A stretch of DNA of 32,000 bases from Methanococcus maripaludis (GCF_002945325.1 NZ_CP026606.1:450001-482000), one strand, 5' to 3'. Positions 2,587-30,048 are shown, numbered from the stretch's first letter. Program-made: numbers and translations. Notes: generated from the letters alone by a model not told the origin.

Positions 2587-2640
2587 CGCGGAGACCGAGA
2601 TTTGAACTCGGGTTACTCAGAGAGTAACGGGATTAGCAGA
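2587..2640 (-). tRNA. partial tRNA-Ser(GCU), 3' portion only (anticodon loop to discriminator); att-site remnant
   Basis: The minus strand reads CTGCTAA (anticodon GCT), TCCCG, a long variable arm GTTACTC-TCT-GAGTAAC, a T arm CCGAG-TTCAAAT-CTCGG, TCTCCGC and G, then a T-run. No D arm or 5' acceptor strand lies upstream. Confidence 0.8.
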
Positions 2641-3038
2641 CCGAAAAATTTTTTAAAATTTTCTAAGTCTTTGGAGAATTCTTTAATAGCTCAATGGCCC
2701 CTCATGATGTCTTGATAGCATGGTCCGCCAGAGTACTTGAAGGTCCATTTGACCAGTACTCTGACCATATTGTCGAGGCAATTTTAGCTATAATCTTGAG
2801 TTATAGGATTCTACCATCTACTTTGAAAATAAGAAGAAATGTTTTATAATCGACGAAAAAACGGCTTTTAAATTTAGAAATAATACATAAATTATAGTTG
2901 TTAAAGAAAATTGGCCTTTGTTTAACAATTCTAAGCGCTTAACCTGCGTTATTAAAATTTTTTAATAGTGGACCATTACTCAACTATCAAAATCTATCAA
3001 AATGTAAAGAATTGATAGATTCTGTTTTTTAAAAGTTC

Positions 3039-3122
3039 TAAAAACCTCTATTTTAATTAAATTTTAAATTAAAACGTTAAAAAGAGAGTTTTGAATAGTT
3101 AAAATTCGTCAACATTGATTTT
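3039..3122. repeat. 84-bp direct repeat, copy A; includes a relic of the last 7 codons plus stop of the 137-aa gene
   Basis: 3099-3122 is identical to 4024-4047 (ttaaaattcgtcaacattgatttt). The rest is near-identical to 3964-4023 by manual alignment. Confidence 0.8.
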
Positions 3123-3209
3123 TTCTATTTTTGAAATTTAAAAAACTCAATAGTTATTTATACAATCTTGTAAATAATAGTTATCAACTTGTATCAAATG
3201 GTGATAAAT

Positions 3210-3479
3210 ATGGCAGTAAGTGAATCAAAATTACAACACTCGCCAACCCTAAATACAATTCTTATGGTTGAAGAAACATTGAAAGATGCAGACAGTATCA
3301 TAACAATTCCAGAATTGAAGAAAAAACTTCCAAAAAAAGTGAATCACAACACTTTAAAAGTAATTTTAGAATATTTGGAAGAAAGTAACAAAATTGCAGT
3401 ATCTTTAAAAGGAATTACCTGGATATTCAATACAAATGTGAATTTAAAAAACGTAGTACATAATGGGCTTGAACTATGA
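3210..3479 (+). CDS. small protein, putative antitoxin or DNA-binding partner of the downstream RelE-like gene
   Basis: GGTGA at 3200-3204 lies 5 nt before ATG 3210 (the track start is TTG 3189). It overlaps the next ORF by ATGA, a typical toxin-antitoxin arrangement. Confidence 0.55.
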   Translation: MAVSESKLQHSPTLNTILMVEETLKDADSIITIPELKKKLPKKVNHNTLKVILEYLEESNKIAVSLKGITWIFNTNVNLKNVVHNGLEL

Positions 3480-3823
3480 AGGATGTAAGAGTAGTTCTTT
3501 CTCCAAATGCTGCTGAAATATATACCAAATTAAAAGAAAGCGATGAAAAACTTGACAAATCGATACTTAACTCATTTTTAGAAAAAGTTGAAATTTTAAA
3601 AACCAACGTTCATTATGGAGATCCTGTTTCTAAAAAGTTAATTCCAAAGGAATACGTTAAAACTTACGAAATTAAAAATTTATTTCGATTCGAATTACCT
3701 CAATTTTTCAGGGTTACGTATACAATTACAAATGGAACGACGGGAATTGAAATTATTGTTTTGGTATTGGATATTATGGACCACAAAACATACAACAAGA
3801 AATTCGGCTATAAAAATCGGTAA
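3476..3823 (+). CDS. RelE/ParE-superfamily-like toxin (putative)
   Basis: 115 aa. The C-terminal pattern NLFRFELPQFFRVTYTI...IEIIVLVLDIMDHKTY resembles the RelE/ParE core (W/F-R-x-R-x-G-x-Y-R-h-h-Y ... h-h-h-h-x-h-x-H-R). Confidence 0.5.
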   Translation: MKDVRVVLSPNAAEIYTKLKESDEKLDKSILNSFLEKVEILKTNVHYGDPVSKKLIPKEYVKTYEIKNLFRFELPQFFRVTYTITNGTTGIEIIVLVLDIMDHKTYNKKFGYKNR

Positions 3824-3963
3824 TTTTTGATTATAGTAAAATTTTGATGCATTACAATTAAATTATCTTTTTTAATTCTTTGAAAATTAAAGAATAATTA
3901 TCGACTATCCACATCTGTTGTAAAACAGGTCCCTTGACTTTTGAATTTTCAAAAAAAGGATTT

Positions 3964-4047
3964 TAAAAACTTTTATTTTACTTAAATTTTAAAATAAAAC
4001 TGTAAAAAGAGAGTTTTTGATAATTAAAATTCGTCAACATTGATTTT
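3964..4047. repeat. 84-bp direct repeat, copy B; the genuine 3' end of the 137-aa gene plus its downstream region
   Basis: Manual alignment with 3039-3122. Confidence 0.8.
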
Positions 4048-4437
4048 GTAGAATAAATCAGCATCTTTTACATAATATAATTCGTTTCCTTTTTTTATTT
4101 CTTCGATTACTTTATCTTCTGGGACAATGTATCCAACTAAGAACTGATCTATTGTTAAATTACCTTCTGACATGATTTCAGTGGTTTTTGTTGAAAGGTC
4201 TGGCAGTTTAATTTTTTGCAATTTGTGAACTGATAACCTGTCATCTTCAACCAGTTCGACCCATTCGATTTTTTTAACAACGTTTGAGAATGAATCTGGA
4301 TTAGCGTAGTTTTTATAGTCTTCAAATGCTTCAAAACCTTCTAAAGACATTTTATAAAGTGTCGATTTTAAAATATCGCTTAATTCTTCGTGACTTTTTA
4401 GATTTCTTAAAACTTTTTCTTCTATTTCTCCTGACAT
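4024..4437 (-). CDS. conserved hypothetical protein, 137 aa, copy 1 of 2
   Basis: ORF with GGTGA upstream of its start. It has a near-identical paralog at 20999-21412. Confidence 0.8.
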   Translation of the reverse strand: MSGEIEEKVLRNLKSHEELSDILKSTLYKMSLEGFEAFEDYKNYANPDSFSNVVKKIEWVELVEDDRLSVHKLQKIKLPDLSTKTTEIMSEGNLTIDQFLVGYIVPEDKVIEEIKKGNELYYVKDADLFYKINVDEF

Positions 4438-10902: not shown

Positions 10903-11880
10903 TCATAGCATTTTCTTAATGTCTTTAATCATTTTCTGCTGCCTTTCTTTAGAATGTGCATAAAATAACGTCGTTTCAATTGATTTGTGCCCCAAATATT
11001 CTTTTACAATTTCAATTGGAATTCCCTGATCTAAAAGATCTACTGCTCGCCCGTGTCTTAAACTGTGGACTACGATTCGTTTGTTTTTTGGGATTTTACC
11101 TTCTTGTTTTAATTCATCAATTGTACTTTTAAATACCTGACCGATCCAACCAACTTTTACGATTCTACCGCCTTTGTTAGTTTGAAAGATCGTATCTTCC
11201 GGCCCCTGTAGTACATTAAATCTGCAGTAGTGCTTTAAAGCTTCAAGCGTGTCGCCTGAGCACGTTACCATTCTTTCTTCACTTCCTTTAGTATCCCTAA
11301 GCTTGAAGAGTCCTTCGTTAAAGTCGCAGTCGCCATACGTGATGTTTAAAGATTCAGAGAGTCTTGCTCCAGTATCCCATAAAAACCGGATGTGTACTGC
11401 ATCCCTTAATTTTGTTCTACTGCTGCTTTTGATAATTTTTTGAAGCACTTGATTTATCAAATCAGCATTTATTGAATCATAGTGCTTTATTTCAAATTTT
11501 GAATATCTTTTTCTTTCCTTACTTTCTTCTTCAAACTGAGAGAAGTTTTTAAGCCGCATAAGTCGGTAAAACACCTTTAACAGTTTAAAATACTTGTCAA
11601 GAGTATTTCTTTGAAGTTTTCGCTCTTTTTCAAGATAATTAAAGAACTTGACAAAGTCGCCGTTATTTGTAATTTCAGGCGTTTTTTCGATTTCTAGGAA
11701 AACAAACGATAAAAATACCCTTAACCTCGTGATGTCATTTCTCAACGTTGTTTTTTTGATTCCATCAAATTCTCGCTCTTCCCTGAAACGGTCGAGCCAT
11801 TCCCTAATTTGTGGAGTTTCTTTTACCTCATCTCGTTTTGGTTTGATAGATATAAGTTTCTCGATGTCCATCTGATTCAC
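10903..11880 (-). CDS. tyrosine recombinase / integrase
   Basis: Catalytic signature GARLSES (R), HSLRHGRA (HxxR) and LGHKSIETTLFYAH (H...Y). The ORF is intact. Confidence 0.85.
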   Translation of the reverse strand: MNQMDIEKLISIKPKRDEVKETPQIREWLDRFREEREFDGIKKTTLRNDITRLRVFLSFVFLEIEKTPEITNNGDFVKFFNYLEKERKLQRNTLDKYFKLLKVFYRLMRLKNFSQFEEESKERKRYSKFEIKHYDSINADLINQVLQKIIKSSSRTKLRDAVHIRFLWDTGARLSESLNITYGDCDFNEGLFKLRDTKGSEERMVTCSGDTLEALKHYCRFNVLQGPEDTIFQTNKGGRIVKVGWIGQVFKSTIDELKQEGKIPKNKRIVVHSLRHGRAVDLLDQGIPIEIVKEYLGHKSIETTLFYAHSKERQQKMIKDIKKML

Positions 11881-12495: not shown

Positions 12496-12647
12496 CCCAA
12501 AAATATTTTGCTTTCATTTTCTTCGACAATTGTTTTAAGTTCATCAAGAACTTCCCTAAGACCTTCCTGGTTTACAAGCCGTCCTTTTGGATTTACTTCG
12601 ACCTGGAGGTTTAAAAGTCCATATTTCCAGTAAGAATAAGTGTCCAT
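12492..12647 (-). CDS. micro-ORF, 51 aa (below the ORF-track cutoff)
   Basis: ATG 12647 is preceded by CAGGTGAAAAAA. Its stop overlaps the start region of the next gene. Manual translation: MDTYSYWKYGLLNLQVEVNPKGRL... Confidence 0.5.
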   Translation of the reverse strand: MDTYSYWKYGLLNLQVEVNPKGRLVNQEGLREVLDELKTIVEENESKIFLG

Positions 12648-12972
12648 TTTTTTCACCTGTTGTAGTAAAATTTTTGAATTTTCCGAAACGTTTATAAATT
12701 GAAACGTCTAGATATATCTCGGGAATGGGAACACGACCACACCGTGCACCTTATTTTTTGATTTGATCATTTTTTTAGATCTAAACTATTTTTCTAGATC
12801 TTTTAGATGATTTTTAAACATTTTAAAGGTTTATTTAGTCTTAATTTCGAATAATTTTAAATATTATAACTTGATATTGCTATTTGGGGTAAATTCGGAT
12901 CCATAATTGTACAAAACGCAATTGTACAAACTTATCGATTTTGAATTTTTACCTTCTTACGCAATTATTTTT

Positions 12973-13212
12973 TCAAGCGTTTAGGTAGTCGATTCTTTCA
13001 ATTTTGAACATTCTATCTCGTTTCCTGTTCGTCTTCATGTCAATTTTTCTCTTGATTTTTAAAAATTCTGGACGGCTTAAAACTTTTAATTTGCATTTTT
13101 CGTCTTTTACAAGTTTCAAAATTCTAAGTAATTCGTTTTTACCACTTGCTACACCGTAACTTTCAGGAATTGCTCCTTTTTTAATGATATAATGAAATTT
13201 CACTGTTTTCAC
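12973..13212 (-). CDS. small basic protein, 79 aa
   Basis: ORF in the track. GAGGTGA lies just upstream of an in-frame GTG. Confidence 0.5.
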   Translation of the reverse strand: MKTVKFHYIIKKGAIPESYGVASGKNELLRILKLVKDEKCKLKVLSRPEFLKIKRKIDMKTNRKRDRMFKIERIDYLNA

Positions 13213-13404: not shown

Positions 13405-13620
13405 TTATTCAACAGCTTTGGTTTTTAACTGGTTTTGAATCTGAATTGCGATTCTTTCAGGCTCGACCGGGCAGTCTTCATCGTAAATGATGACTCTTGC
13501 GCGCTTTCCAACATGTTCTGGAAATGGATTTGGCCAGACCCTTCCACCGCCGCCCTGCTTTTTTATGACTGCATCGTAGCAGACAAGTATGTTTTTTTCT
13601 GAATTTTCGATAATGACCAC
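13405..13620 (-). CDS. small protein, 71 aa, possibly SpoVT/AbrB-like
   Basis: ORF in the track. The segment KKQGGGGRVWPNPFPEHVGKRARVII weakly resembles the swapped-hairpin motif G-x-x-G-x-h-x-h-P-x-x-h-x-G-K-x-h-x-h. Confidence 0.45.
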   Translation of the reverse strand: MVIIENSEKNILVCYDAVIKKQGGGGRVWPNPFPEHVGKRARVIIYDEDCPVEPERIAIQIQNQLKTKAVE

Positions 13621-13632
13621 CTTTTTTGAATT

Positions 13633-13776
13633 TTAGTTTTGATCTGGTTTAGTTTCTGAATTTTCATCGGATTTTGAGACTTTTACAAAATTTTCAACCT
13701 GTTTTGAACCATTAAAAAGATTTTCAAGTTCATTTTCGAAATTTTCTTTTGTTTTTTTAGCTTCTGAATTGTTCAT
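13633..13776 (-). CDS. micro-ORF, 47 aa, acidic and low-complexity
   Basis: ATG 13776 lies 4 nt after the stop of the zinc-ribbon ORF. Manual translation: MNNSEAKKTKENFENELENLF... Confidence 0.4.
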   Translation of the reverse strand: MNNSEAKKTKENFENELENLFNGSKQVENFVKVSKSDENSETKPDQN

Positions 13777-13780
13777 GAGT

Positions 13781-13924
13781 TTACCGCCCATCTTCCGTTT
13801 CTTCATTTGTGCAGTCTCTGCATTCTAGCCCCACCGTAGTGCTTGCAGCCCTGTAAATTACGTCTACTCTAACGTTTGTAGAACCGCATTTTTTACATAT
13901 TATCTGGAAATCTTTTGGATCCAT
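13781..13924 (-). CDS. micro-ORF, 47 aa, zinc-ribbon protein
   Basis: Manual translation: MDPKDFQIICKKCGSTNVRVDVIYRAASTTVGLECRDCTNEETEDGR, with two CxxC pairs. Confidence 0.55.
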   Translation of the reverse strand: MDPKDFQIICKKCGSTNVRVDVIYRAASTTVGLECRDCTNEETEDGR

Positions 13925-13987
13925 TTTTATCAGCCCCATTTTCTTTAAAATTTAATTTTAAGGATTTTTAGAAATTTACTTGGTTAA

Positions 13988-14191
13988 TCATTCTTCAATA
14001 TTTAATTTTACATCTTGGTACACGCCCATGTTTACTGACATGAAAAAGTCTTCTTCATCCCACGTTATTCCCATTCCGAGAACTTTACGGCCGGTTTTTT
14101 CTAAAACTTCTTTTTCGACGCCTGCCAAGATTTTATAAATGGTTTCATACGTTTTTTCGATATTTTGATTTGAATTTTCCAATTCAGTCAC
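13988..14191 (-). CDS. small protein, about 64-67 aa
   Basis: ORF in the track. GGTGA followed by an in-frame TTG at 14182 is the likely start. Confidence 0.5.
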   Translation of the reverse strand: MTELENSNQNIEKTYETIYKILAGVEKEVLEKTGRKVLGMGITWDEEDFFMSVNMGVYQDVKLNIEE

Positions 14192-14194
14192 CTT

Positions 14195-14392
14195 TTAAAA
14201 TTTTTGAAGTAATAGTAGAACTAAAATTCCAAACGTAATCTGGAGTGCTAAAAACGCCCCATACGTTATTTTCATCTTTTCATAGCCTTGGATTGTTATG
14301 TAAACGAAGCAGAAAGCCAGAAATGCTGTAAAAATTATTTTTAAATATAGATTCAGTATTAAATCCACCAGGATTTCTAGCAATGATTTCAC
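14195..14392 (-). CDS. small membrane protein, about 62-65 aa, 2 TM helices; first gene of the minus-strand operon
   Basis: ORF in the track with a hydrophobic translation. GAGGTGA followed by an in-frame TTG at 14383. Confidence 0.5.
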   Translation of the reverse strand: MKSLLEILVDLILNLYLKIIFTAFLAFCFVYITIQGYEKMKITYGAFLALQITFGILVLLLLQKF

Positions 14393-14404
14393 CTCTTGAA
14401 TTTT

Positions 14405-14495
14405 ACATATAACATTTTTTGTTATTTGATTACACTTGTAATTATGAGTAATTATCCTATATATAGCTTATTACATTTTTTGTTATTTAATAATT
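14405..14495. promoter_or_regulatory. divergent promoter region with a duplicated 16-nt operator-like sequence
   Basis: ACATTTTTTGTTATTT is perfectly repeated at 14412-14427 and 14473-14488. Each copy contains the AACA-N5-TGTT dyad. Confidence 0.5.
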
Positions 14496-14567
14496 AATTT
14501 CGTTATGATTTTCAAATATATATGATAAGGTAAACATAATTGATACATGGAAAACTAGCGGGATAGT

Positions 14568-14963
14568 ATGATTGAGATTTTTAACCAAAAATTCGTAAAA
14601 GATATTCTTACTTTAGTATTCGAGAACTCAGAAGGAATGTTTTTTACAGATCTTCAGGATAAACTAACTGAAACGTATGGGAGCATTCATCAAAGTGCAG
14701 TAAGCCGTGCAATATCCACATTATTTCAAAATAGAATGATTGAAAAATTGGAAGTTAGAGTGGACCAAAAAAATATTCCTAAAAGTTTCTATAGAATAAC
14801 GGAAACAGGCAAATTTGCTTTTAAAATACTTGAAATGGATAAAGAACTTGATGAAGAAGTAAAAGGAGTTAAATTTCACAACGAAATCAACGGGGATGTT
14901 GGACAAGTTATCAACATTGATAAAGCCGACAGCTTAGAGATTAACTTTAAAAAAGGTAAATAA
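14568..14963 (+). CDS. winged-helix transcriptional regulator, 131 aa
   Basis: The pattern FTDLQDKLTETYGSIHQSAVSRAISTLFQNRMIEKLEV...YRITETGKFAFK fits a helix-turn-helix plus wing. It is a paralog of the 4609 and 21751 ORFs. Confidence 0.6.
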   Translation: MIEIFNQKFVKDILTLVFENSEGMFFTDLQDKLTETYGSIHQSAVSRAISTLFQNRMIEKLEVRVDQKNIPKSFYRITETGKFAFKILEMDKELDEEVKGVKFHNEINGDVGQVINIDKADSLEINFKKGK

Positions 14964-15037
14964 TTACTATTTTGATATTTTATCGGGATTGAATCGATAT
15001 TTTTAAATATTCTTTTTTAAATAATTAAGTTATTAAA
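14921..15037. repeat. cassette-boundary direct repeat R1 (about 117 bp); begins inside the last 14 codons of the 14568 regulator gene
   Basis: Manual alignment with 16473-16589 (full length) and 17732-17809 (first 78 bp). Confidence 0.8.
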
Positions 15038-15060
15038 TTTATTATTTTTGAGGTGGGTTA

Positions 15061-15192
15061 ATGGCAAGGAAAAATCCAACGACTACGAATGGTAAAGTAA
15101 ATCGGGCATTAACGGGGGACGGAAGGAAAAAACCTGTAAAACAGATTAAAAAGAACATTAAAGAAATGATTGACGCTTCAAAAAAGAAGTAA
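15061..15192 (+). CDS. micro-ORF, 43 aa, highly basic
   Basis: GAGGTGGG lies 5 nt before ATG 15061. Manual translation: MARKNPTTTNGKVNRALTGDGRKKPVKQIKKNIKEMIDASKKK. Confidence 0.45.
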   Translation: MARKNPTTTNGKVNRALTGDGRKKPVKQIKKNIKEMIDASKKK

Positions 15193-15252
15193 TTTTTTTA
15201 TTTTTTTTAAGATTTATTGTAATTTAAAAAAACTAAAATTTATGGTGTATGT

Positions 15253-16431
15253 ATGGAAATGAAAAATCTTCAAGATTTACTTATGGAAAAGATTTATTTA
15301 GAATATATAAACGGCAAAAAAACATTATCCCAATCAGAATTTAAGTATCTAGGCGTAGACAATGATGATATTTATATCGCATTGAAAGATCTGTGTTATG
15401 AAAACAAAATCGATCTTAAAGCACAAAGAACTACAATGGGTGTTTATTATTTTACAGAATTGACTGCGAATGGAATAAAATCAGTTGAAAACCCAAAATT
15501 TACTAAAAAACAGGTTGAAAAAGCTAAAAAAATTATAAATGAAAATTCAGCACTGGTAATGAATTCTAAATACCAAACACATCAAAACAACATAAAAATA
15601 TTGTTGGATGAATTTGAAAACGACCCTGTTTTAAGACATATAATGCTTAAGTTAAAGATTATAGATTATGATTTTGATAGTTGGTATTCTGAAACAACAT
15701 CTACAATGTCCTCAATGGTGGCTTCTGCTAGATACGAATTACCCTCAAATAAAGATAAAAGATTATCTTTATTATATAAATTTTTAAAGGCTATTTCAGA
15801 AGGTAAACTTAAAGCATACAATTTTTCATTGATGGCATTGAGCGGAGATAAAAACCTTGATACATTAACAGATGTTTTTAACGAACAGATTTTTGTTCAT
15901 TTTTATAATGGAATTCTTTCAAAACTGGAAATTATTCTCGAAGAAATTGAAATTACAGGTGTGAACGTGGAGAATGTTACTATAAACTCAAATATTCAAA
16001 ATTCAATTTTTAAAAACAATGAATTTTCGTTAAATAATAAACTGGTATTTATATTATGTCCTTTTGAAGACGTCTTCAACGTTGTTTGTGCAGATCATAT
16101 TAAACCCCTCATGACATCATTAGACTTGGATTGTATGCGTGCTGACGATATATTTGACACCAAACCGATCATTGAAGATATTTGGAAGTGTATTAACGAA
16201 GCTCGCATTATAATTGCAGATTTAACACATAGGAATCCAAATGTTTTTTATGAATTGGGTCTTGCACATGCATTGGGAAAAGAAGTTATTACAATAACTC
16301 AAAATATTGCAGATATTCCCTTCGATGTTCGCCATATGCGAATTATTGAGTATTCTTACACTCCACGGGGAGTTGAAAAATTACAAAATGATTTAAAAAA
16401 GACTATCGAAACGATTTTAAACAGAACATAA
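15253..16431 (+). CDS. 392-aa protein: N-terminal wHTH-like region, helical middle, and a C-terminal nucleoside 2-deoxyribosyltransferase/TIR-like Rossmannoid domain
   Basis: The C-terminal pattern VFILCPFEDVF...MRADDIF...ARIIIADLTHRNPNVFYELGLAHALGKEVITI...PFDVRHMRII matches the NDT/DrHyd-like family signature as I remember it. GGTG RBS. Confidence 0.65.
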   Translation: MEMKNLQDLLMEKIYLEYINGKKTLSQSEFKYLGVDNDDIYIALKDLCYENKIDLKAQRTTMGVYYFTELTANGIKSVENPKFTKKQVEKAKKIINENSALVMNSKYQTHQNNIKILLDEFENDPVLRHIMLKLKIIDYDFDSWYSETTSTMSSMVASARYELPSNKDKRLSLLYKFLKAISEGKLKAYNFSLMALSGDKNLDTLTDVFNEQIFVHFYNGILSKLEIILEEIEITGVNVENVTINSNIQNSIFKNNEFSLNNKLVFILCPFEDVFNVVCADHIKPLMTSLDLDCMRADDIFDTKPIIEDIWKCINEARIIIADLTHRNPNVFYELGLAHALGKEVITITQNIADIPFDVRHMRIIEYSYTPRGVEKLQNDLKKTIETILNRT

Positions 16432-16472
16432 TACTTTTAAATTTTAAAGTAAATCGATCTTTTTAAATTTTT

Positions 16473-16589
16473 TAAAGCCGAGGGCTTATGGATTAACTTT
16501 AAAAAAAGTAATTAATTCTATTTTTGATATTTTATCGGGATTTAATCGGTATTTTTAAATATTCTTTTTTTAATAATTAAGTTATTAAC
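16473..16589. repeat. cassette-boundary direct repeat R2
   Basis: It aligns with R1 over its whole length. Its first 45 nt would translate to KAEGLWINFKKSN-stop, a relic of the regulator C-terminus KADSLEINFKKGK-stop. Confidence 0.8.
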
Positions 16590-16635
16590 TTTTATAACGA
16601 TTTATTTTGATATTGTAACTTATGGGGGCAACATA

Positions 16636-17712
16636 TTGTTTACGTTACATAATTCAGTAATAAATACTGCGATCATTGTTTTTGAAAAGATGAGAAAGAA
16701 AGACATCAATGCATATTTTTCTAAGAAATCCTACCAGCACGATTTAAGAATAGAAGGAACTGGGGGAAGTAACGCCTCCCTTTTTGAAAGTTGGATATCG
16801 CAATTTCCCCCCGAAATCCAATTAGAATGTTTAAATGAATTAATGCAAAAATATGGCCCTGATGACGATCAAGGTCTTGGTGAGCTTTTAGAAAGTGAAA
16901 CTATTCAATATTCTAAATATTTATCTAAAAATGAATCAGGTTTAAACAATAATAAAAATGAAAAATTAGATTTTGGAGGGGTTACTATGGCAACCAATAA
17001 AAAAAAGAAAATATTTATAAGTCATTCTTCAAAAGATAAAGAATATGCAAAGCTTTTAAGAGATGTTCTGGAAAATGCCGGTTTAACCCATGATCAAATA
17101 TTTTGCACATCCCTAACGGGACATCGAAATGAATTTGGAAAAAATTTCTTAGACAATATAAAAAACAAGCTAAATGATGATTACTTAATATTATTCCTTC
17201 TTTCTAGAAATTTCTATGAAAGTCCCATGTGTATGTGTGAATTAGGTGCAGCATGGGTTAAAACAAAAGAATCCGTTCCCGTATTAATCCCCCCTTTTGA
17301 TTACGACGACATGAATATGACAATAAAACATACTGAAGGTTTTAAAATAAATGAGAAGGATAGAATACACGAATTTAAGGATTATTTAGATTCTAACTTT
17401 AATAATAAACCAATTCCTGTTTCCATTTGGAATGAACGAACTGAAAAAACTTTTTCAGATATCATTAAATTAATTGAAAAAGATTCAAAAAATGCTAAAA
17501 AGTCCTCCAAAAAAACAACTGCAAAGAAAACAAGTGATAAAAAGTCTAAAAACTCAGAAAATAAAACTTCAAAATCAAAAACTGCTAAAAAACCTACTAA
17601 TGCTAGAAAAACCAGTACTACAAAAAAATCAGATGATCCTTTTAATATTAATATATCAACAGATAGTTCAATATCAGGTATTCTTGGCGGAAATTCTAAA
17701 AAATTATTCTAA
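16636..17712 (+). CDS. TIR-domain protein with a Lys/Ser/Thr-rich basic C-terminal tail
   Basis: The segment KIFISHSSKDKEYAKLL...LILFLLSRNFYESPMCMCELGAAW is a canonical prokaryotic TIR pattern including the catalytic Glu. The tail is KKSSKKTTAKKTSDKKSKNSENKTSKSKTAKKPTNARK. There is an alternative strong internal start at ATG 16987. Confidence 0.8.
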   Translation: MFTLHNSVINTAIIVFEKMRKKDINAYFSKKSYQHDLRIEGTGGSNASLFESWISQFPPEIQLECLNELMQKYGPDDDQGLGELLESETIQYSKYLSKNESGLNNNKNEKLDFGGVTMATNKKKKIFISHSSKDKEYAKLLRDVLENAGLTHDQIFCTSLTGHRNEFGKNFLDNIKNKLNDDYLILFLLSRNFYESPMCMCELGAAWVKTKESVPVLIPPFDYDDMNMTIKHTEGFKINEKDRIHEFKDYLDSNFNNKPIPVSIWNERTEKTFSDIIKLIEKDSKNAKKSSKKTTAKKTSDKKSKNSENKTSKSKTAKKPTNARKTSTTKKSDDPFNINISTDSSISGILGGNSKKLF

Positions 17713-17731
17713 TTCTTTCTTTTTTAAATTT

Positions 17732-17809
17732 TAAAGCCGATGGACTTGAAATTAACTTTAAAAAAGGAAAATAATTACTATTTTGATATTTTATCAGGAT
17801 TGAATCGAT
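17732..17809. repeat. cassette-boundary direct repeat R3 (shorter, 78 bp)
   Basis: It aligns with the first 78 bp of R1. It would translate to KADGLEINFKKGK-stop. Confidence 0.75.
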
Positions 17810-17949
17810 CTTGTTTTAAATTTTTAAAGTGCACTTTAAAACATAATTATATTATAAATTAAGCCTATATAATGAGGTAATTTTTAATTTTAACTCACTA
17901 AAATATTCATAATCAAAACGGTAATCAATAAATCAAAAGGCGATTTCAA

Positions 17950-20016
17950 TTGAATTTTTTCAAAATAACAACGTGTTTATTATTACTTTTTGCATTAATT
18001 TCAGTAAATTATTCTGCTGAATTTGTAGATGATGGACAGTATGTCTATTGTAAATTAACAAACGAAAATTTGGGTGAATTTGGTATATTGAATAGATCTA
18101 TCTCAGGCACAGATAATGTTTATCTTGTAACGGGATTTTCTGAAAGTGCTAATTTGCCAAATAATACTTATCTTGACTTATCATTAGATAAATACTTTCC
18201 AAATGTTGGAAATCAAGGTAAAATCGGTTCATGTACCTCATGGGCTTGTTCATACTATGCAAATTCATATTTACAGGCAAGAATTAACAACTGGGATTTA
18301 AAAGGAAATGACAGTTCTAAATGTTTGAATCCGTTGTGGACGTATAATAAAATGAACAATGGGGAAATATACCTTGGAGCTAACTCCGAAGATACATTAA
18401 AAATGCTTTCAAGAATTGGTGCTGTAACTTATGAAACAATGCCTGAAAATGAGAGCTATACTTTTTGGGGCGATGAAGATGACTGGCTTGAAGCACCCCA
18501 ATACAGAATAACAGGCTTTGATTTCACCCTAACGAGTAATACTGAAATTATAAAATCATGGTTGAACGAAGGTTCAATCGTAATTATTGCAATCCATTAC
18601 GATGATTTAAGAAATTGTTTTGAAAATACATCCATAATTTCAGATCACTGCCAATCTCATGAGGACGCAACTCACGCGGTCGTAATTGCAGGGTATAATG
18701 ACAGCATGTCAAAAGATAATGAAACAGGAGTTTTTAAAGTTGTGAATTCTGAAGGCCCATTATGGGGCCCTAATGGTGATGGATGTTACTATATGACGTA
18801 TGATGCAGTTTCAAATCTAAAAGATTGTTATTGTGCTAGGATATCTGATGCAGTGTACAATACTTCAGATTCTCACCCCGAACTTATTGGGTATGTACGG
18901 TTTGATCCCGAAAATAAAGGTACAAAAGATCAAAACATAATTTTTGGAATTGGAAATGAGTCAAATATTTCTGGATATGTAGATATTTTTGGAAGTCTTT
19001 ATTGTAATCAAAATGGCGGAAACGGCTCAATGCCTGATTTTATCGTAATTGATTTGACTGACTGGAAATCTGAATTTGAAAACTCATTAAACACCACTGG
19101 AAAAGGATATTACTTTGTTAATTTTTCAAATGGAACGGAAACTTCAATAATTTCTGAATTTGGAATAATTAAATACAGCTCTTATCCAGATATCGAAGAA
19201 ATAAATACATTAAATTCGTATGCTTGCAATAAATCAGTAGTATTTAAGTTTTACAGTAAAACAGCCCCCGAAATTATTAATTCAAGCGTAAATGTTTTAG
19301 AAAACGAAGTTATTGTTTCAATAAGTGCAGAAGACGTTGAAAACGACCTATGGGGCGTAAACGTATACTTTGACGGTTCAAATGAATATTATTCATTAAA
19401 CGGTACAAATGAAACGTTTAACGGCTCATTTGATAAATCCATGTTTTCATACGGCGAACACTACGCAATATTTGAAGCGTTTGATGGTTCAGGAAACGTG
19501 AATAATAGTGAAATGGTTGCTTTTGAAATTTCAGCCCCAGCTACTTCTTCAAGAAGTACTGGAAACCATTATAGTTCCGATCTTTCTGATGGAATTAGTT
19601 CTGGAACCATTAAAAGAGCAGTTTCAAATTCAAATATTATATATGGAAGCGATGTAGATGAAGGATATGCTTTGAATTTGAGAGAGAATGTTAAAAATGG
19701 AAACGATTACGAACTTTCAGGAGATACAATAATTGTTGGTGGACCAGAAGCAAACGGATTTGCTGAAAAGTACGATTCAGAGTTTGAAATTTCAATTACA
19801 AACGACTATCCTGGGGAAAATAAAGGGCTAATTCAAGTGAAAAATATTGAAGTACGCGACGGAAACATAATCAAAACTTATCAGGTAATATATATTGCAG
19901 GTTCTGACAGGTTTGGAACACAGGCTGCTTTAGAATACTTTAAAACTTTAGATGAGCTTCCCGATATGCCCCTTACTGTTGAATGGACTGAAAATGGACC
20001 TGTGGTTGTTGAATAA
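17950..20016 (+). CDS. secreted papain-like (C1 family) cysteine peptidase with C-terminal surface-attachment domains
   Basis: Signal peptide MNFFKITTCLLLLFALISVNYSA. Catalytic motifs NQGKIGSCTSWA (Q, C), HAVVIAGYND (H) and VVNSEGPLWGPNGDGCYYM (N, W). The C-terminus IIVGGPEANGFAEKY...IYIAGSDRFGTQAALEYF resembles the Methanococcales S-layer C-terminal region. It has many N-x-S/T sequons. Confidence 0.8.
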   Translation: MNFFKITTCLLLLFALISVNYSAEFVDDGQYVYCKLTNENLGEFGILNRSISGTDNVYLVTGFSESANLPNNTYLDLSLDKYFPNVGNQGKIGSCTSWACSYYANSYLQARINNWDLKGNDSSKCLNPLWTYNKMNNGEIYLGANSEDTLKMLSRIGAVTYETMPENESYTFWGDEDDWLEAPQYRITGFDFTLTSNTEIIKSWLNEGSIVIIAIHYDDLRNCFENTSIISDHCQSHEDATHAVVIAGYNDSMSKDNETGVFKVVNSEGPLWGPNGDGCYYMTYDAVSNLKDCYCARISDAVYNTSDSHPELIGYVRFDPENKGTKDQNIIFGIGNESNISGYVDIFGSLYCNQNGGNGSMPDFIVIDLTDWKSEFENSLNTTGKGYYFVNFSNGTETSIISEFGIIKYSSYPDIEEINTLNSYACNKSVVFKFYSKTAPEIINSSVNVLENEVIVSISAEDVENDLWGVNVYFDGSNEYYSLNGTNETFNGSFDKSMFSYGEHYAIFEAFDGSGNVNNSEMVAFEISAPATSSRSTGNHYSSDLSDGISSGTIKRAVSNSNIIYGSDVDEGYALNLRENVKNGNDYELSGDTIIVGGPEANGFAEKYDSEFEISITNDYPGENKGLIQVKNIEVRDGNIIKTYQVIYIAGSDRFGTQAALEYFKTLDELPDMPLTVEWTENGPVVVE

Positions 20017-20127: not shown

Positions 20128-20385
20128 GTGAAACCAATGATCCCAGAATCTCCAAATATGCTAGAACATATCCCAGAAGACTTTAAGTACTGGAGAAAGT
20201 ATCAGCAGGAAAAAATTGAGGAGATTTTAGGCCATATTTCAAACGGTAAGAAAACAATTGTTTTAAATGCACCAACCGGGGCTGGAAAATCACTTTACAA
20301 TATTTCGGTTGGTTCTATTTTAAATTCATTAAAAAGTTATCAAATAATTAACATTTATATAGTCCATTTTGATAGTTTATTTTGA
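20128..20385 (+). pseudogene. 5' fragment of a DEAD/DEAH (Rad3/DinG-like) helicase gene, truncated shortly after Walker A
   Basis: The sequence WRKYQQEKIEEILGHISNGKKTIVLNAPTGAGKSL is a helicase motif Q/I region. The ORF ends about 30 codons later and no further helicase motifs occur in the window. Confidence 0.6.
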
Positions 20386-20998: not shown

Positions 20999-21412
20999 TT
21001 AAAATTCGTCGACATTGATTTTGTAGAATAAATCAGCATCTTTTACATAATATAATTCGTTTCCGGATTTGATTTCTTCGATTACCTTATCTTCTGGGAC
21101 AATATATCCAACTAAGAACTGATCTATTGTTAAATTGCCTTCTGACATGATTTCTGTGGTTTTTGTTGAAAGGTCGGGTAATTTGATTTTCTGCAATTTG
21201 TGAACTGACAACCGGTCATCTTCAACCAGTTCGACCCATTCAATTTTTTTAACAACGTTTGAGAATGAATCTGGATTTGCGTAATTTTTGTAGTCTTCGA
21301 ATGCTTCAAAACCTTCTAAAGACATTTTATAAAGTGTTGATTTTAAAATATCGCTCAATTCTTCGTGGCTTTTTAGATTTCTTAAAACTTTTTCTTCTAT
21401 TTCTGCTGACAT
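20999..21412 (-). CDS. conserved hypothetical protein, 137 aa, copy 2 of 2
   Basis: It differs from 4024-4437 at 25 of 414 nt by manual alignment, giving only 2 amino-acid changes (G3A, K116S). Confidence 0.8.
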   Translation of the reverse strand: MSAEIEEKVLRNLKSHEELSDILKSTLYKMSLEGFEAFEDYKNYANPDSFSNVVKKIEWVELVEDDRLSVHKLQKIKLPDLSTKTTEIMSEGNLTIDQFLVGYIVPEDKVIEEIKSGNELYYVKDADLFYKINVDEF

Positions 21413-26067: not shown

Positions 26068-28021
26068 TTTGATAAAACGTTATTTTCTTTTTTTGTTGGT
26101 TTTAATGTGTGCAGTTGGTACAGTTAATGCCGTAAACCCTACTGTTCCAGATATGTGTACCGCCACAGAATTTTATGTCATTCTTTCAGATGACACAATG
26201 TCACAAGATTTAGTTATTTCGACATTATCTGCTTATGATTTTAGCGTGTCCGCACCAGTAATATCTGGCATTGACAGTCAAACTATTTATTTTGAGTCAG
26301 AAAATGACCTTGGGCGGTTTTGTTCAATAATAAGTACAACAAATAAAGTATTACCTTTTGCAGGGGCTTTTGATGTTTATAAAAATGGGGAAAGAACTCC
26401 CATGACCGTGATATTACTTGACGGTCAAGCATATACTCCGTATGGTGACTCATTTTATCAGTATGTCGATCTGAATATGACAGGTTCCCAAATAGGCTAT
26501 GTTTATGCATGGATTTCTAACACATACAGCCAAAATTATTTAACCTTGCTCCTTAACGATGCGACGGTAGTTTCATGTTCGGGGGACGCTTCAAAAACTC
26601 AATATCTATCCAGTACATTTTTTCAAAATAATGTACTCGCTATTCATTGGAAAAACTTAAATGGTTATGATAAATTAACTGCTTCTATCGTATTATTTGA
26701 TTATGTGGATTCTGCCACGTATTCGCCAGATGATAGGTGCGATTTTACAGTATCCGAGATATACACGCCACCAGAACGGGCAACCATTGATATATACACA
26801 GAACCCGCAGTCGATATATACAATAATCAAAATAACGAATTTTTGGGAACAACAGATAACGGCGGGTATTTGGCTTTGTCTTTGTTTCTTGGCGAAACTA
26901 CATTAAAATTCGTTAAAGATGGATACTGGGACACTTTAAAAACATTTACGGTAGCTACAGAAAACAATAGTGAAATATATGTTTCAATGACCCCAAGAAA
27001 TGCCATTTTCCAAGTTTCAAAAGAATTTTCTGGAAATATCTATCCAAATTCAGTCGCTTCTCTTTCAATGGATGTAATCCCGGTTAAAACAGCATATGCT
27101 ACAAAATTGAGAGTTTCAGGAGTAGAAGTAAACAAAGTTTATTATCAAACACAAGAACTCCCAAAAACAGCTGATGGATCTTACATTATTGGCGATATGT
27201 CAAGCCCCCAAAATATTGTAATTGATTTTAAAACTACGTCGTCCTGGGGTGAAAGGGCGTTTACTGTCGAATTATCTGCAACAGATATCGAAGGAACAGC
27301 CTATACAAACTTAGAAACGATTAATTATAATGTGTTAGAACTTCCGTTTTTATTTGAAACACCTGATCAATGGGCCATTGGTTCGAATGACGTAACTTTA
27401 ACAGATATGTCTGGTGAATCATATTCTGTTCTTATGGTTTTGTATGATGAATCAGGAACTGAAAAGTGGAGTTCAAGCACAAATCTTTTAGAATACTGCG
27501 ATTACACGTTTGAAGTTCCAATTGAAGACGCAGGAGAATACACTCTTGAATTGAACGCAAAATCTGGAACTGTTAAATCATACTATTCGATTGAAATAAT
27601 CGAGCCTGTATCATTAATTAGTGATTTTTTAACTGCATCTCCCGGAAATGTTGCTACAGTGCAGTTTAAAATTTCAAACCCGACTGAAAGCGTAAAATAC
27701 TATACTGCTGAATTATCGTGTCCATTTTACAATGAAACAGTTGATAAAACGTTTTCAATCGCCCCTGGAACAGTTGAAAAAACAGTTGACATTTCGTTTG
27801 AAGTTCCTGAAGGTCTTGAAATGGAATACTACCAGTTAACACTTGAAGTATTCAATGAAGGAGATACAGAGCCGATATATTCTGGAAATATTGTTTTAAC
27901 AATTTCGACTAGTTCACTTTTCCTGGCTTCAGTTCCTGGGGGTAACACTACACTAATTCTTTTAGCTGCTGCAGTTCTTTTAATTGCGGGAACATTTGCA
28001 GCATTGAGGCTGAAAAAATGA
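26060..28021 (+). CDS. large secreted surface protein, about 650 aa, with signal peptide, PEGA/CarboxypepD_reg-like and CARDB-like beta domains, and a C-terminal TM anchor
   Basis: Signal sequence IKRYFLFLLVLMCAVGTVNA. The segment IDIYTEPAVDIYNNQNNEFLGTTDNGGYLALSLFLGETTLKFVKDGYWD is PEGA-like. The C-terminus is LILLAAAVLLIAGTFAALRLKK. The likely start is TTG 26069, after GGTGGGTGG. Confidence 0.75.
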   Translation: MVNLIKRYFLFLLVLMCAVGTVNAVNPTVPDMCTATEFYVILSDDTMSQDLVISTLSAYDFSVSAPVISGIDSQTIYFESENDLGRFCSIISTTNKVLPFAGAFDVYKNGERTPMTVILLDGQAYTPYGDSFYQYVDLNMTGSQIGYVYAWISNTYSQNYLTLLLNDATVVSCSGDASKTQYLSSTFFQNNVLAIHWKNLNGYDKLTASIVLFDYVDSATYSPDDRCDFTVSEIYTPPERATIDIYTEPAVDIYNNQNNEFLGTTDNGGYLALSLFLGETTLKFVKDGYWDTLKTFTVATENNSEIYVSMTPRNAIFQVSKEFSGNIYPNSVASLSMDVIPVKTAYATKLRVSGVEVNKVYYQTQELPKTADGSYIIGDMSSPQNIVIDFKTTSSWGERAFTVELSATDIEGTAYTNLETINYNVLELPFLFETPDQWAIGSNDVTLTDMSGESYSVLMVLYDESGTEKWSSSTNLLEYCDYTFEVPIEDAGEYTLELNAKSGTVKSYYSIEIIEPVSLISDFLTASPGNVATVQFKISNPTESVKYYTAELSCPFYNETVDKTFSIAPGTVEKTVDISFEVPEGLEMEYYQLTLEVFNEGDTEPIYSGNIVLTISTSSLFLASVPGGNTTLILLAAAVLLIAGTFAALRLKK

Positions 28022-30048
28022 TGAATTCAAAACTATTTTCTATTTTCTGCATTTTTTTAATTGCTTCTCTACCCTCTGCGAATGCTATTTCGGTATTGGG
28101 ACATGAATTAAATGCAGGATGGGATGATGTAGCAGCCCTTGGTGTTGGGGGAGTTGCACTTGGTGCAGTTGCAGTAACTGCCGGAGCTCCCGTACTTGTT
28201 GTTGCAGGAATTGGAATTGGTGGAGCGATTGCAGTCGATTATGCGTATAGGTGGGCTACAGGAAAAGACGTAGAAGAATCTGCAGCAGTTACGGGAGCTG
28301 TAAAGACGAACGTGACTGATGAAGAATATGTAAATGGTTCTTACGTCTACGAAGAACTTGCAGGATACCGACAATACTCAGAAGAATCTGCAGCAAAGGA
28401 TATTGCAGAAATCAAAGATAAATTAGAGTCCGGAATTGGAACATACTCGTTTAAAACTTCAGGGACTTTATCAGACGTTTCAGTTTCGATGAAAGGACCT
28501 GACAAAATATATGGGTTTTCAGCGTTTCCAGTTCAGTTGAAGTTTGATGAAGCATTAACTGGCTCAAAAAGTTCCTATGTAAAAATTGAAAGTGTAAAAA
28601 TATACCTTGTAGATTCTGATGGCGTTAAATGGAATGAAAGGACATATTCAGATGATATAAAACTTCAAGAAGAATCAAATGATTATCCCGATTCAATTGA
28701 AGAATATATTTTAAATTTCACAATGAAAGCGCCTGATCCATACATTGGAAAGGCAAAATCGCAAGTAACAAATGCCCCAGATAGAGAAATTCTTCAGGAG
28801 CTCTTAGGAGCAGAAGTTAAAGAGTTTGAACTTGTTGTTGAAATTAATGGATATGCAAAACTGTACAAAGAAGAATCAGGATACAAACTGGATCCGATAA
28901 CGGGTCTAGAAGTATGGAAAACCTGGGAAGAATATGATAAAACAATTACAATAGATACAAAACTTACAACCCTTGAAGCATGGGATAGAATACACAACGG
29001 TGTTTATTATGTTGATGGAGCTGATGGATCCCTCCCAACTAAATTCGTAAACGAAGTAACCCCAATAGCCTATTCTTCTTATGCAAATGGAGCAACTTCA
29101 AACATTATTGGTCGAGTTTGGGCAAGTCCTGTACACTGCTACAATTCATCAGCACAGTACAAATTTATCCTTGTTGGACAACCTGAGAATTTAAAGCCGG
29201 TTCCAGTAACTATTGAAGATGATTATAGGGCCTTAGTCCTAAAATTAAGAGATGATGGGGTTGCAACAATTGCTTCAGAAACTCCTGGAAACTTCCAGAA
29301 TATGGCAGTCCATAATGGGGTTACAACTTCGCTTAATTATCTAAAAGACGATTCTACAGAAGCTTTTGAAACCTATTTTATTGTAATTGCGGATGTTGAC
29401 GATGATATTGACTCAGCACTTCCAGTATGGTGCATTATCCAGCCAAGAATCTCTGTAATTGACAACGTGAAATACTCATTATCTGAAGAATTCAAAGAAG
29501 AAATTCTTGAGTTACTTTCGGATGGCTCAATTTCTGATTCAGATACTGAAAGAATTACAGAAATCATTGAAATTTCTGAAAACAGTTTAAAAGAAAAACA
29601 GTACGTTGCAGAAATTGAATCTGGAAAATACGAAGATAACGAAAAAGCAAGTAATGCAATTTCAAACGCTTTAGAAGATTATGAAAAAGCCTTTGAATAC
29701 TATGAAAAGGCGAAAAATACTGATGATCCTGAAGAGGTAAAAGTTTACACTTATCTTGCAGGGGATATCTATGAACCAGCAGGGGATTACTGGAGTGAAG
29801 CTGCAGAAAAATACAATTTAGGACTTGATGATCAGGGAAATGCACTTGCAAGTAATGCTGAAAAACTTGAAAGTTTGGCATCTGAATACGAACCCAGTTT
29901 ATGGTTTACTGCAGGATCCACCATTTCTGAATGGTGGGATCAGTTTAAGTCTGGTTTTGGTATCGGTGACGTTCCAAACACTGTTTTAATTATTGTTGTA
30001 GTCATAGTCCTCGTCTGTGGTGCAGCAATTGTCATTAAAGTATTATAA
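28018..30048 (+). CDS. large membrane-anchored or secreted protein, 676 aa
   Basis: ATGA overlap with the previous gene. It has an N-terminal signal sequence, a Gly/Ala/Val-rich hydrophobic segment, a helical acidic region and a C-terminal TM (VLIIVVVIVLVCGAAIVIKVL). Confidence 0.75.
   Translation: MMNSKLFSIFCIFLIASLPSANAISVLGHELNAGWDDVAALGVGGVALGAVAVTAGAPVLVVAGIGIGGAIAVDYAYRWATGKDVEESAAVTGAVKTNVTDEEYVNGSYVYEELAGYRQYSEESAAKDIAEIKDKLESGIGTYSFKTSGTLSDVSVSMKGPDKIYGFSAFPVQLKFDEALTGSKSSYVKIESVKIYLVDSDGVKWNERTYSDDIKLQEESNDYPDSIEEYILNFTMKAPDPYIGKAKSQVTNAPDREILQELLGAEVKEFELVVEINGYAKLYKEESGYKLDPITGLEVWKTWEEYDKTITIDTKLTTLEAWDRIHNGVYYVDGADGSLPTKFVNEVTPIAYSSYANGATSNIIGRVWASPVHCYNSSAQYKFILVGQPENLKPVPVTIEDDYRALVLKLRDDGVATIASETPGNFQNMAVHNGVTTSLNYLKDDSTEAFETYFIVIADVDDDIDSALPVWCIIQPRISVIDNVKYSLSEEFKEEILELLSDGSISDSDTERITEIIEISENSLKEKQYVAEIESGKYEDNEKASNAISNALEDYEKAFEYYEKAKNTDDPEEVKVYTYLAGDIYEPAGDYWSEAAEKYNLGLDDQGNALASNAEKLESLASEYEPSLWFTAGSTISEWWDQFKSGFGIGDVPNTVLIIVVVIVLVCGAAIVIKVL

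Follow-up and report, generated by a model that had tools for sequence, protein, structure and literature searches.

Integration that regenerates the 3′ end of the gene it enters, and the accretion of further DNA at such ends, are known from phage 21 and e14 in icd, from ICESt1/ICESt3 with cis-mobilizable elements (CIMEs) at fda, and from tycheposon arrays at tRNA genes. In the morons and defence hot spots known from lambdoid phages and from phages and satellites of the P2/P4 type, as well as in the minimal mobile elements of Neisseria, exchange is by homologous recombination at conserved flanks or linkers, and Xer/dif-dependent modules are represented by the integrative mobile elements exploiting Xer (IMEX), which form arrays, and by the pdif modules of Acinetobacter. 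Integrons have also been reported in Archaea (PMC9668308). The array that we compare with these systems stands in a stretch of 32,000 nucleotides (nt) of Methanococcus maripaludis (GCF_002945325.1 NZ_CP026606.1:450001-482000), hereafter the window, which is part of an integrated plasmid of the pT26-2 family. In this element, cargo cassettes placed behind a regulator gene are parted by direct repeats, each of which begins with the last codons of that same gene. As to their origin we lean, if only slightly, towards homologous recombination and gene conversion at a linker that was formed once, rather than towards an integron-like enzyme.

The direct repeats, R1 to R3, occupy 14922-15036, 16474-16588 and 17733-17809, and each begins with the regulator's last 13 codons. 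A repeat search returns them as 14908-15040, 16460-16592 (85%) and 17719-17851 (69% overall, good only to about 17809), alignment agrees, and two sub-patterns of the repeat each match exactly three places, where 0.00 matches are expected from shuffles. The three direct copies proposed in an earlier sequence-only reading of the window are thus confirmed, as is the position of R1, which begins inside the open reading frame (ORF) of the regulator, 14568-14963, whose product ends in …KADSLEINFKKGK before the stop codon. R2 (16474-16514) and R3 (17733-17777) translate to KAEGLWINFKKSN and KADGLEINFKKGK, each followed by a stop codon and neither with a gene body upstream, as expected of the C-terminal relics that the same reading had seen in them. 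Its placement of the cargo between the repeats is also borne out: ORFs of 43 and 392 amino acids (aa) come first, then a TIR ORF of 358 aa. The 392-aa protein consists of a region like PADLOC PDC-M14B (3.4e-12) and a TIR/nucleoside-deoxyribosyltransferase (NDT)-like C-terminus (TIR-type effector, 1.6e-9; weak Pfam Nuc_deoxyrib_tr), and a protein 100% identical to the 358-aa one is on record for M. maripaludis. The two proteins are unrelated (E = 0.26), and a simple tandem gene duplication was rejected for this reason.

Conservation reaches about 33 nt further left than R2 and R3 themselves, and an nhmmer profile covers 16441-16518 and 17706-17778. What recurs is a linker of about 78 nt, composed of a T-rich cassette end of 33 nt, AATTTTAAAATAAATCGATCTTTTTAAATTTTTA, and a 45-nt relic of the regulator tail ending in TAATTA; in every linker of every array the two are joined at AAAG/CCGA, the slash marking the join. 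A leader of about 70 nt may follow, containing the palindrome TGATAnnnTATC, then AATCGAT, then a TATA-like stretch. Copies of the first leader recur at 16515-16588 and in two related elements, here called L001 and L051, and it would act as operator/promoter for the first cassette. The sequence-only reading had further suggested a defined crossover point at an ATCGAT palindrome, where R3 departs from the other copies. Past GAATCGAT (17803-17809) R3 indeed runs into CTTGTTTTAAATTTTTAAAG, and this T-rich stretch also precedes R2 (16459-16477), as had been noticed, and R3 itself (17719-17736). Nevertheless, the proposed crossover point is not supported, because the break is not sharp, the continuations ATTTTTAAATATTC and CTTGTTTTAAATTTTT being alike and having nTTTTTAAATnTT in common, and because crossovers are found elsewhere.

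Homologues of the regulator form nine clusters in a large protein collection; the contexts of seven were fetched, and an extra array was reached through a TIR homologue. Searches with a profile of the internal linkers detect further copies in no more than five elements: internally there are two in the window, three in L001, four in L006, three in L051 and two to three, decayed, in L008. To the left of the regulator the DNA that the window shares with L001, L006 and L008 is 97.6-99.8% identical (L051 was compared directly with the window only over the array and its right flank). The four relatives hold three to four cassettes with other cargo, the range over all five arrays being two to four (Table 1), so that the other cargo and copy numbers implied by the sequence-only reading are indeed found; across the related elements the cargo comprises restriction-modification, trypsin-like, AAA, TPR, TIR, AbiTii and GmrSD genes. 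A cassette with a 589-aa gene is 96-98% identical in L006, L051 and L008, and its left neighbour is a 275-aa gene in the first, a TIR gene in the second and a 700-aa gene in the third. The TPR+TIR cassette, 92% identical between L001 and L006, has different neighbours on both sides. Since the same cassettes stand beside different neighbours, cassette turnover is real. Moreover, identity between the window and L001 falls from 99.8% left of the regulator to 77% in the TIR gene, and the 3′ part of the 392-aa gene is 77% identical to the first cassette of L001. Taken over all arrays, cassettes are 77-98% identical, against 97.6-99.8% for the common DNA left of the regulator, and this greater divergence argues for separate histories. 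With variable arrays and reshuffled neighbours, the locus is neither fixed nor free of turnover, the two grounds on which the sequence-only reading could have fallen.

The array is closed on its right side by a unit without cargo. In the window, L001 and L006 the same T-rich stretch comes after this last unit and leads into a conserved right flank; homology between the window and either relative resumes at 17721, and the stretch 17721-17960 is 98.3% identical in L001 and 96.3% in L006. An empty site, with the regulator directly followed by the terminal unit, was found in none of the loci. Elements without internal linkers (L005, L016, L019 and L003) carry equally different cargo starting 3-30 nt past the stop codon, which counts against an integron-like mechanism; the regulator tail is conserved in nine loci, and over this same distance the DNA turns into different cargo. 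Searches with the exact pattern AAAGYYGAN10ATTAAYTTTAAAAAA of R gave 6 matches in species-representative genomes, all bacterial, 19 in JGI metagenomes, none of them confirmed by the linker profile, and 0 in IMG/VR.

The points at which related arrays pass from one sequence to another are scattered. A recombinant is visible in the linker between the TIR and 589-aa genes of L051, which is L001-like up to GTATTGACTTT and L006-like from AAAAAAGGAAATTAATTA on, and the switch point of L008 falls in the same conserved block of R, CTTTAAAAAAGG. That of the TPR+TIR cassette lies within the T run, the window and L001 part after the leader at 15042 and again in the T run at 17721, and L051 and L001 switch at an unrelated promoter repeat of 53 nt. 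Over this handful of events there is, therefore, no single constant crossover position.

A second kind of trace is found in the regulator itself. Its product ends in a conserved tail of about 30 aa, …KFHNEINGDVGQVINIDKADSLEINFKKGK before the stop codon, and the tail …KFHNEI(N/K)G(D/N)VGQVINIDKA(D/E)GLEINFKKGK, again followed by the stop codon, is common to all but one of the regulators compared, the exception being that of L021, whose tail differs. Despite this common tail, identity in the winged-helix domain drops to about 40% between elements. The tail alleles differ almost entirely at third codon positions, which indicates that the tail is conserved as a protein and not as a DNA site. Between the regulators of the window and L001, 9 of 293 nt differ in the body and 15 of 79 nt in the tail, the flanks of this 79-nt patch differing at 12 of 378 nt (Fisher p = 3e-6). 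Counted from the start codon, 14 of the 15 tail differences fall at multiples of three and hence at third codon positions, with the remaining one replacing G by S, and past the patch the leader is again 96% identical. We read this almost wholly synonymous patch, in which one allele of the tail has taken the place of another, as a gene-conversion signature. Furthermore, 61 of 66 relic codons are also seen in functional tails, and the relics carry several different functional alleles, which points to repeated exchange between relics and functional tails. Altogether, the locus has conserved flanks around unrelated cargo, short mosaic patches and scattered exchange points, as a recombination hot spot should.

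These data bear directly on the view that one old tandem duplication decayed in place, with occasional gene replacement, and that the array is a frozen relic whose cassettes no longer move. Where the linkers are well preserved, the order of the cargo has some regularity, since an NDT-like gene comes first in the window, L001 and L051 and a TIR gene second in the window, L001, L006 and L051; the linkers of L008 are decayed, and the linker-bearing elements appear to form one close clade, all of which such a history would explain. It would hardly leave common DNA up to 99.8% identical beside cargo that is 77-92% identical or unrelated, nor copy numbers from 2 to 4 with reshuffled neighbours, the recombinant linker of L051, or relics with several functional alleles, and we judge it improbable.

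Table 1. Features of the window and composition of the five arrays (positions counted from the first letter of the window; cassettes listed from left to right, separated by semicolons).
Feature	Position	Strand	Description
tRNA-Ser(GCT) 3′ half, anticodon loop to acceptor end	2587..2639	-	window-best match to tRNA-Ser probe; arms read directly in sequence
87-nt repeats 3036-3122 / 3961-4047, bracketing 96-aa + 115-aa gene pair	3036..4047	-	89% identical
Xer-like tyrosine integrase	10903..11880	-	Pfam Phage_integrase 1.5e-27; gene intact
Regulator gene, 131 aa	14568..14963	+	from ORF list; weak PadR match; winged-helix N-terminal domain
R1	14922..14966	+	functional last 13 codons + stop + TTA; left anchor of array
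Leader 1	14967..15036	+	palindrome TGATATTTTATC 14973-14984; AATCGAT 14992-14998; TATA-like ATTTTTAAATATTC...AAGTTATTAA 14999-15036
Cassette 1 cargo	15061..16431	+	43-aa basic ORF (15061-15192) + 392-aa protein (15253-16431)
Inter-cassette linker 1	16441..16518	+	nhmmer 2.5e-17; AATCGAT 16452-16458, T run 16459-16477, then R2
Leader 2	16515..16588	+	copy of leader 1; AATCGGT at 16544-16550
Cassette 2 cargo, 358-aa SpbK-like TIR-domain protein	16636..17712	+	Pfam TIR_2 1.5e-11; PADLOC spbK 2.5e-39
Inter-cassette linker 2	17706..17778	+	nhmmer 1.9e-15; T run 17719-17736 joined to R3
Terminal cargo-free unit	17778..17829	+	palindrome-bearing stretch; AATCGAT 17803-17809; T run 17810-17829; then right flank (TGCAC...)
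688-aa protein, right flank of array	17950..20016	+	weak papain-type peptidase C1 match + Methanococcales S-layer outer-domain match
Window array			43 aa + 392 aa; TIR 358
L001 array			291 aa; TPR + TIR 411; DUF6978 + DUF1828/9
L006 array			AF_1680 444 aa; TPR + TIR 414; 275 aa; 589 aa
L051 array			90 aa + AbiTii/NDT 328 aa; 518 aa + TIR 411; 589 aa; GmrSD + helicase ...
L008 array			three blocks, one a frameshifted 589-aa cassette

The repeated unit might also be kept for what it does, as a portable terminator-operator-promoter module that places the cargo under common control, the coding relic being incidental. The T run, the palindrome TGATAnnnTATC and the TATA-like TTTAAATA would be its components, and they are suitably placed: palindrome and TATA-like stretch stand 40-100 nt upstream of cargo starts (R1, R2, L001, L051) and the T runs come after cargo stop codons. 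However, many linkers of L006 have no leader and end at TAATTA, those of L008 decay, and function would account for the maintenance of the unit but not for its origin or for the reshuffling. That the unit is kept mainly for function is very unlikely, and this reading is a complement more than a rival to the others.

Recombination at a once-formed linker, the reading that we favour, would have proceeded as follows. The interval behind the regulator's stop codon is a hot spot for cargo, mostly anti-virus defence, of a pT26-2-family plasmid. In a recent sub-lineage, a single segmental duplication would have joined the T-rich end of this hot spot to the regulator's last 13 codons, giving a portable linker that unites a terminator-like T run with a tail relic and that is often followed by the promoter-like leader. 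Linker, functional tail, leader and other short repeats would then act as portable homologies at which the host recombination machinery could carry out recombination and gene conversion between diverged copies of the element, possible partners being co-resident elements, sister chromosomes of a polyploid cell and incoming DNA. Single (Campbell-type), unequal and double crossovers would lead to the insertion, deletion, swap and reordering of cassettes. With the left anchor lying inside the gene, an exchange can moreover swap the C-terminal allele of the regulator, the previous allele staying in the array as a relic. The species M. maripaludis is known to be polyploid, and it is both naturally competent and recombination-proficient.

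The same topology occurs a second time in the window, in a putative toxin-antitoxin (TA) cassette already singled out by the sequence-only reading and confirmed here through the 87-nt repeat of Table 1, which comprises the last 8 codons of a 137-aa gene and 63 nt more. The 96-aa and 115-aa proteins have no matches in Pfam, NCBIfam or PADLOC; the latter is, as we take it from its sequence pattern, RelE/ParE-like. A recognition sequence common to this repeat and R was looked for and rejected, as shuffles reach the score in 47-343 of 500 trials. Two repeats with one topology but unrelated sequences point to a process that does not depend on sequence.

Any enzymatic account has to start from the host element. 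The T26-6p core protein is encoded at 28018-30048 (its three domains score 7e-64, 2e-26 and 5e-17) and is 97% identical to T26-6p of MMPV1 of M. maripaludis S2; together with the intact tyrosine integrase gene and the tRNA-Ser half at 2587-2639, it places the element in the pT26-2 family. According to PMC6972569, hallmarks of this family are the core protein T26-6p, a tyrosine integrase of type II and insertion into tRNA-Ser, and its Methanococcales members integrate in tRNA-Ser, usually with the anticodon included, and carry the integrase in mid-element; the supplements of that paper do not give att sequences. The tRNA half is of class II: CTGCTAA forms its anticodon loop and GTTACTC/GAGTAAC a variable arm of 7 bp, the T arm reads CCGAG-TTCAAAT-CTCGG, and TCTCCGCG is the acceptor strand. 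It is the relic of an attachment (att) site and marks a border of the integrated element. It is not called by ARAGORN or by Rfam, the scan with the latter giving nothing at gathering thresholds. Compared with the R units, the relic reaches a best local alignment score of 10, under the 95th percentile of window tiles and thus at background, and the possibility that R is the element's own att site was rejected on this basis.

The integrase, in turn, is a generic Xer-like enzyme. Its best match is archaeal XerA (136.7 bits with the NCBIfam model, cut-off 220), and the NCBIfam integron-integrase models give 69.8 bits (cut-off 265) and 44.2 bits (cut-off 435). Between its gene and the regulator lie 2.7 kb and at least eight small ORFs, and both regulator tail and linker are absent from its IMG/VR relatives, which are 57-61% identical.

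It is nevertheless conceivable that cassettes are captured site-specifically. Circles without an integrase of their own, with the linker as an attP-like site, would be inserted into the 3′ end of the regulator as a pseudo-att by the Xer-like integrase of the element or by that of a co-resident pT26-2 element, the last 13 codons being replaced each time; such a process would resemble the accretion of integrative and conjugative elements (ICEs) and CIMEs, or an integron without attC hairpins. Several observations that weigh against homologous recombination find a place here. The AAAG/CCGA join falls at the same nucleotide in every linker, as a site-specific enzyme would also leave it, although a single origin of the join would probably explain this as well. 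AATCGAT recurs at module borders, in four combinations. The start of R3, AAAGCCGATGGACTTGAAAT, agrees at 17 of 20 positions with the anticodon-arm region of tRNA-Ser(TGA), AAAGGCGCCGGACTTGAAAT, whole anticodon loop included; among 121-nt tiles of both strands of the window, R3 ranks second after the true tRNA relic, and tRNA-Ser(TGA) lies at the border of MMPV1 in S2. Furthermore, at 45-78 nt and 80-90% identity the homologous tracts are short for recombination to be efficient, and our map of crossovers rests on a handful of events from five arrays. To this must be added that all copies are in direct orientation, that a tyrosine integrase is present in the same element, that the topology is that of 3′-end-regenerating integrases and that tRNA-Ser, usually with its anticodon, is the family's target in Methanococcales, as described above.

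On the other hand, the crossovers fall at four positions at least, and the supposed overlap CTTGAAA is polymorphic in tails and relics (TTAGAGA, TTGGAAA, CCCGAAA, TTATGGA). No dyad core of more than 5 bp was visible by eye, folding predicts no hairpin, the tRNA-Ser(GCT) relic of this element stands at background against R, and L005, with an integrase region 89% identical, has no internal linkers. The tRNA-Ser(TGA) match, besides, was found post hoc. We regard site-specific capture as possible but unlikely. A bolder formulation sees in the array an archaeal functional analogue of the integron, in which a Xer-like pT26-2 integrase captures promoter-bearing defence cassettes that have no integrase, at a pseudo-att within the 3′ end of the regulator that resembles the tRNA-Ser anticodon arm. 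Each capture would then give the regulator a new C-terminus and turn the previous one into a dated relic, with the newest cassette first, and homologous exchanges secondary to this primary capture would account for the scattered exchange points. This too we hold to be unlikely.

The likeness to integrons is real at the level of organization: a one-directional array of mostly single-gene cassettes, a recurring element of about 80 nt, a fixed anchor, a tyrosine recombinase nearby, and a content that varies between close relatives as cassette units. Unlike integrons, however, the array has no IntI-type integrase, either by score (69.8 against a cut-off of 265) or by position, adjacent to and divergent from the insertion site, and the recombinase gene that does exist stands at a distance. 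The linkers are not hairpin-forming inverted repeats. Seven foldings of linker DNA (both strands for the two window linkers, the plus strand for three L006 linkers) gave z from -1.6 to +0.8 relative to shuffles, with no excess folding, and the idea of attC-like hairpins was consequently rejected; reading the linkers, moreover, we saw no border of the GTTRRRY type. Instead, the linker represents a fossilized 3′ end of the adjacent gene, the cassettes have promoter-like leaders of their own, and the crossovers are scattered. Of the integron-like stacking of cargo suggested by the sequence-only reading, then, the recurrent and variable cassette array stands, and a site-specific mechanism is not supported, given these crossovers, the lack of hairpins and an att site unlike R.

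With 3′-end accretion the locus shares incoming DNA that supplies a replacement 3′ end with synonymous differences, an old end that is left as a relic, and successive insertions that give arrays parted by partial repeats of the target gene. The borders are direct repeats that hold the 3′ end of the target gene, R1 being the regenerated functional copy and R2, R3 and those of L001, L006 and L051 displaced relics. The described cases, in contrast, involve an integrase acting at a defined core, whereas here the cassettes have no integrase, the junctions lie at several points, and the att of the resident integrase, the tRNA-Ser(GCT) half, is unrelated to R. Xer/dif modules resemble the array in that their cargo has no recombinase of its own, short border sites recur and the recombinases are of the Xer type. 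Nevertheless, an inverted-repeat search of 13500-19000 showed no dif-like site of 28 nt with two 11-nt arms at cassette borders, only AT-rich arm pairs of 70-85% complementarity; the only short palindromes seen by eye in the unit are ATCGAT, TGATAnnnTATC and AAGCC-n3-GGCTT, the longest of 5-6 bp, and the sites do not alternate in orientation. With morons and defence hot spots the array has in common variable, often defensive cargo between conserved flanks, genes with a promoter and terminator of their own, and mosaic patches; the difference is that here a repeated linker with a coding relic subdivides the array, so that cassettes stack and reorder. We therefore rate the array as a recombination hot spot, or moron-type cargo region, whose new trait is its subdivision by a linker fossilized from the flanking gene. 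The host here is an archaeal plasmid family, and a limited literature search and the portion of PMC6972569 used here contain no description of such an array in it.

Other features of the region deserve mention. Upstream of the regulator, in a divergent intergenic region, the palindromes ATAACAtttttTGTTAT and TTACActTGTAA stand at 14409-14441 and 14470-14486, and part of the motif recurs 61 nt downstream, which gives them an operator-like look; considered alongside the winged-helix domain, which is hypervariable at about 40% identity from element to element, they suggest an immunity-type switch. At the end of the first cassette (16428-16477) two T-run modules lie in tandem, TACTTTTAAATTTTAAAG and then TAAATCGATCTTTTTAAATTTTTTAAAG, only one being present in the L001 and L051 homologues; they may be the trace of an unequal exchange within the T run. 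The promoter-like repeat of about 53 nt mentioned above (…AAATATAATTATATTAT…AAAATTAAAATAAA) is found at 13934-13986 in L001, 14602-14654 in L006, 14327-14380 in L008 and 15228-15281 in L005, upstream of unrelated cargo genes (TIR; the 700-aa gene).

Beyond the array, the 688-aa gene of the right flank is present in the window, L001 and L006; it is absent from L051 and is therefore itself accessory. The 697-700-aa genes of L005 and L008 were considered as its orthologues; the 700-aa protein of L008, the one compared, is not homologous to it. Further on, a ResIII helicase N-terminus is encoded by an 85-aa ORF (20128-20385) whose flanks are 93% identical to L051; it appears to be the remnant of a 654-aa DEAD/ResIII helicase that is intact there (14567-16531). 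The 137-aa gene, whose end is repeated around the TA cassette, exists twice, at 4024-4437 and 20999-21412, both on the minus strand, as it does in L001 (26-439 and from 20148 onward). The copies differ by 2 aa, are about 93% identical over the first 300 nt, and bracket some 17 kb with the integrase, the regulator and the array, again with the topology of R and an unrelated sequence; the arrangement resembles a co-integrate that arose by a single crossover in the 137-aa gene, or else a nested element. Finally, the small-ORF region beside the integrase (12499-13109) is 85% identical to a region of M. maripaludis S2 (L046, 3016-3626). This counterpart lies beyond MMPV1 as delimited in PMC6972569, across tRNA-Ser(TGA), and S2 may carry there the remnant of a second element.

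The array lets one follow, nucleotide by nucleotide, how a small defence island is assembled and reshuffled on an archaeal plasmid. The cargo of this island includes TIR, TPR, AbiTii/NDT-like, GmrSD and restriction-modification genes, and the relics are a readable record of past alleles of the regulator tail. M. maripaludis being genetically tractable, the choice between a dedicated recombinase and general recombination at short linkers is directly answerable, and if the integrase proved to be responsible, the array would represent a new kind of gene-capture platform in Archaea.

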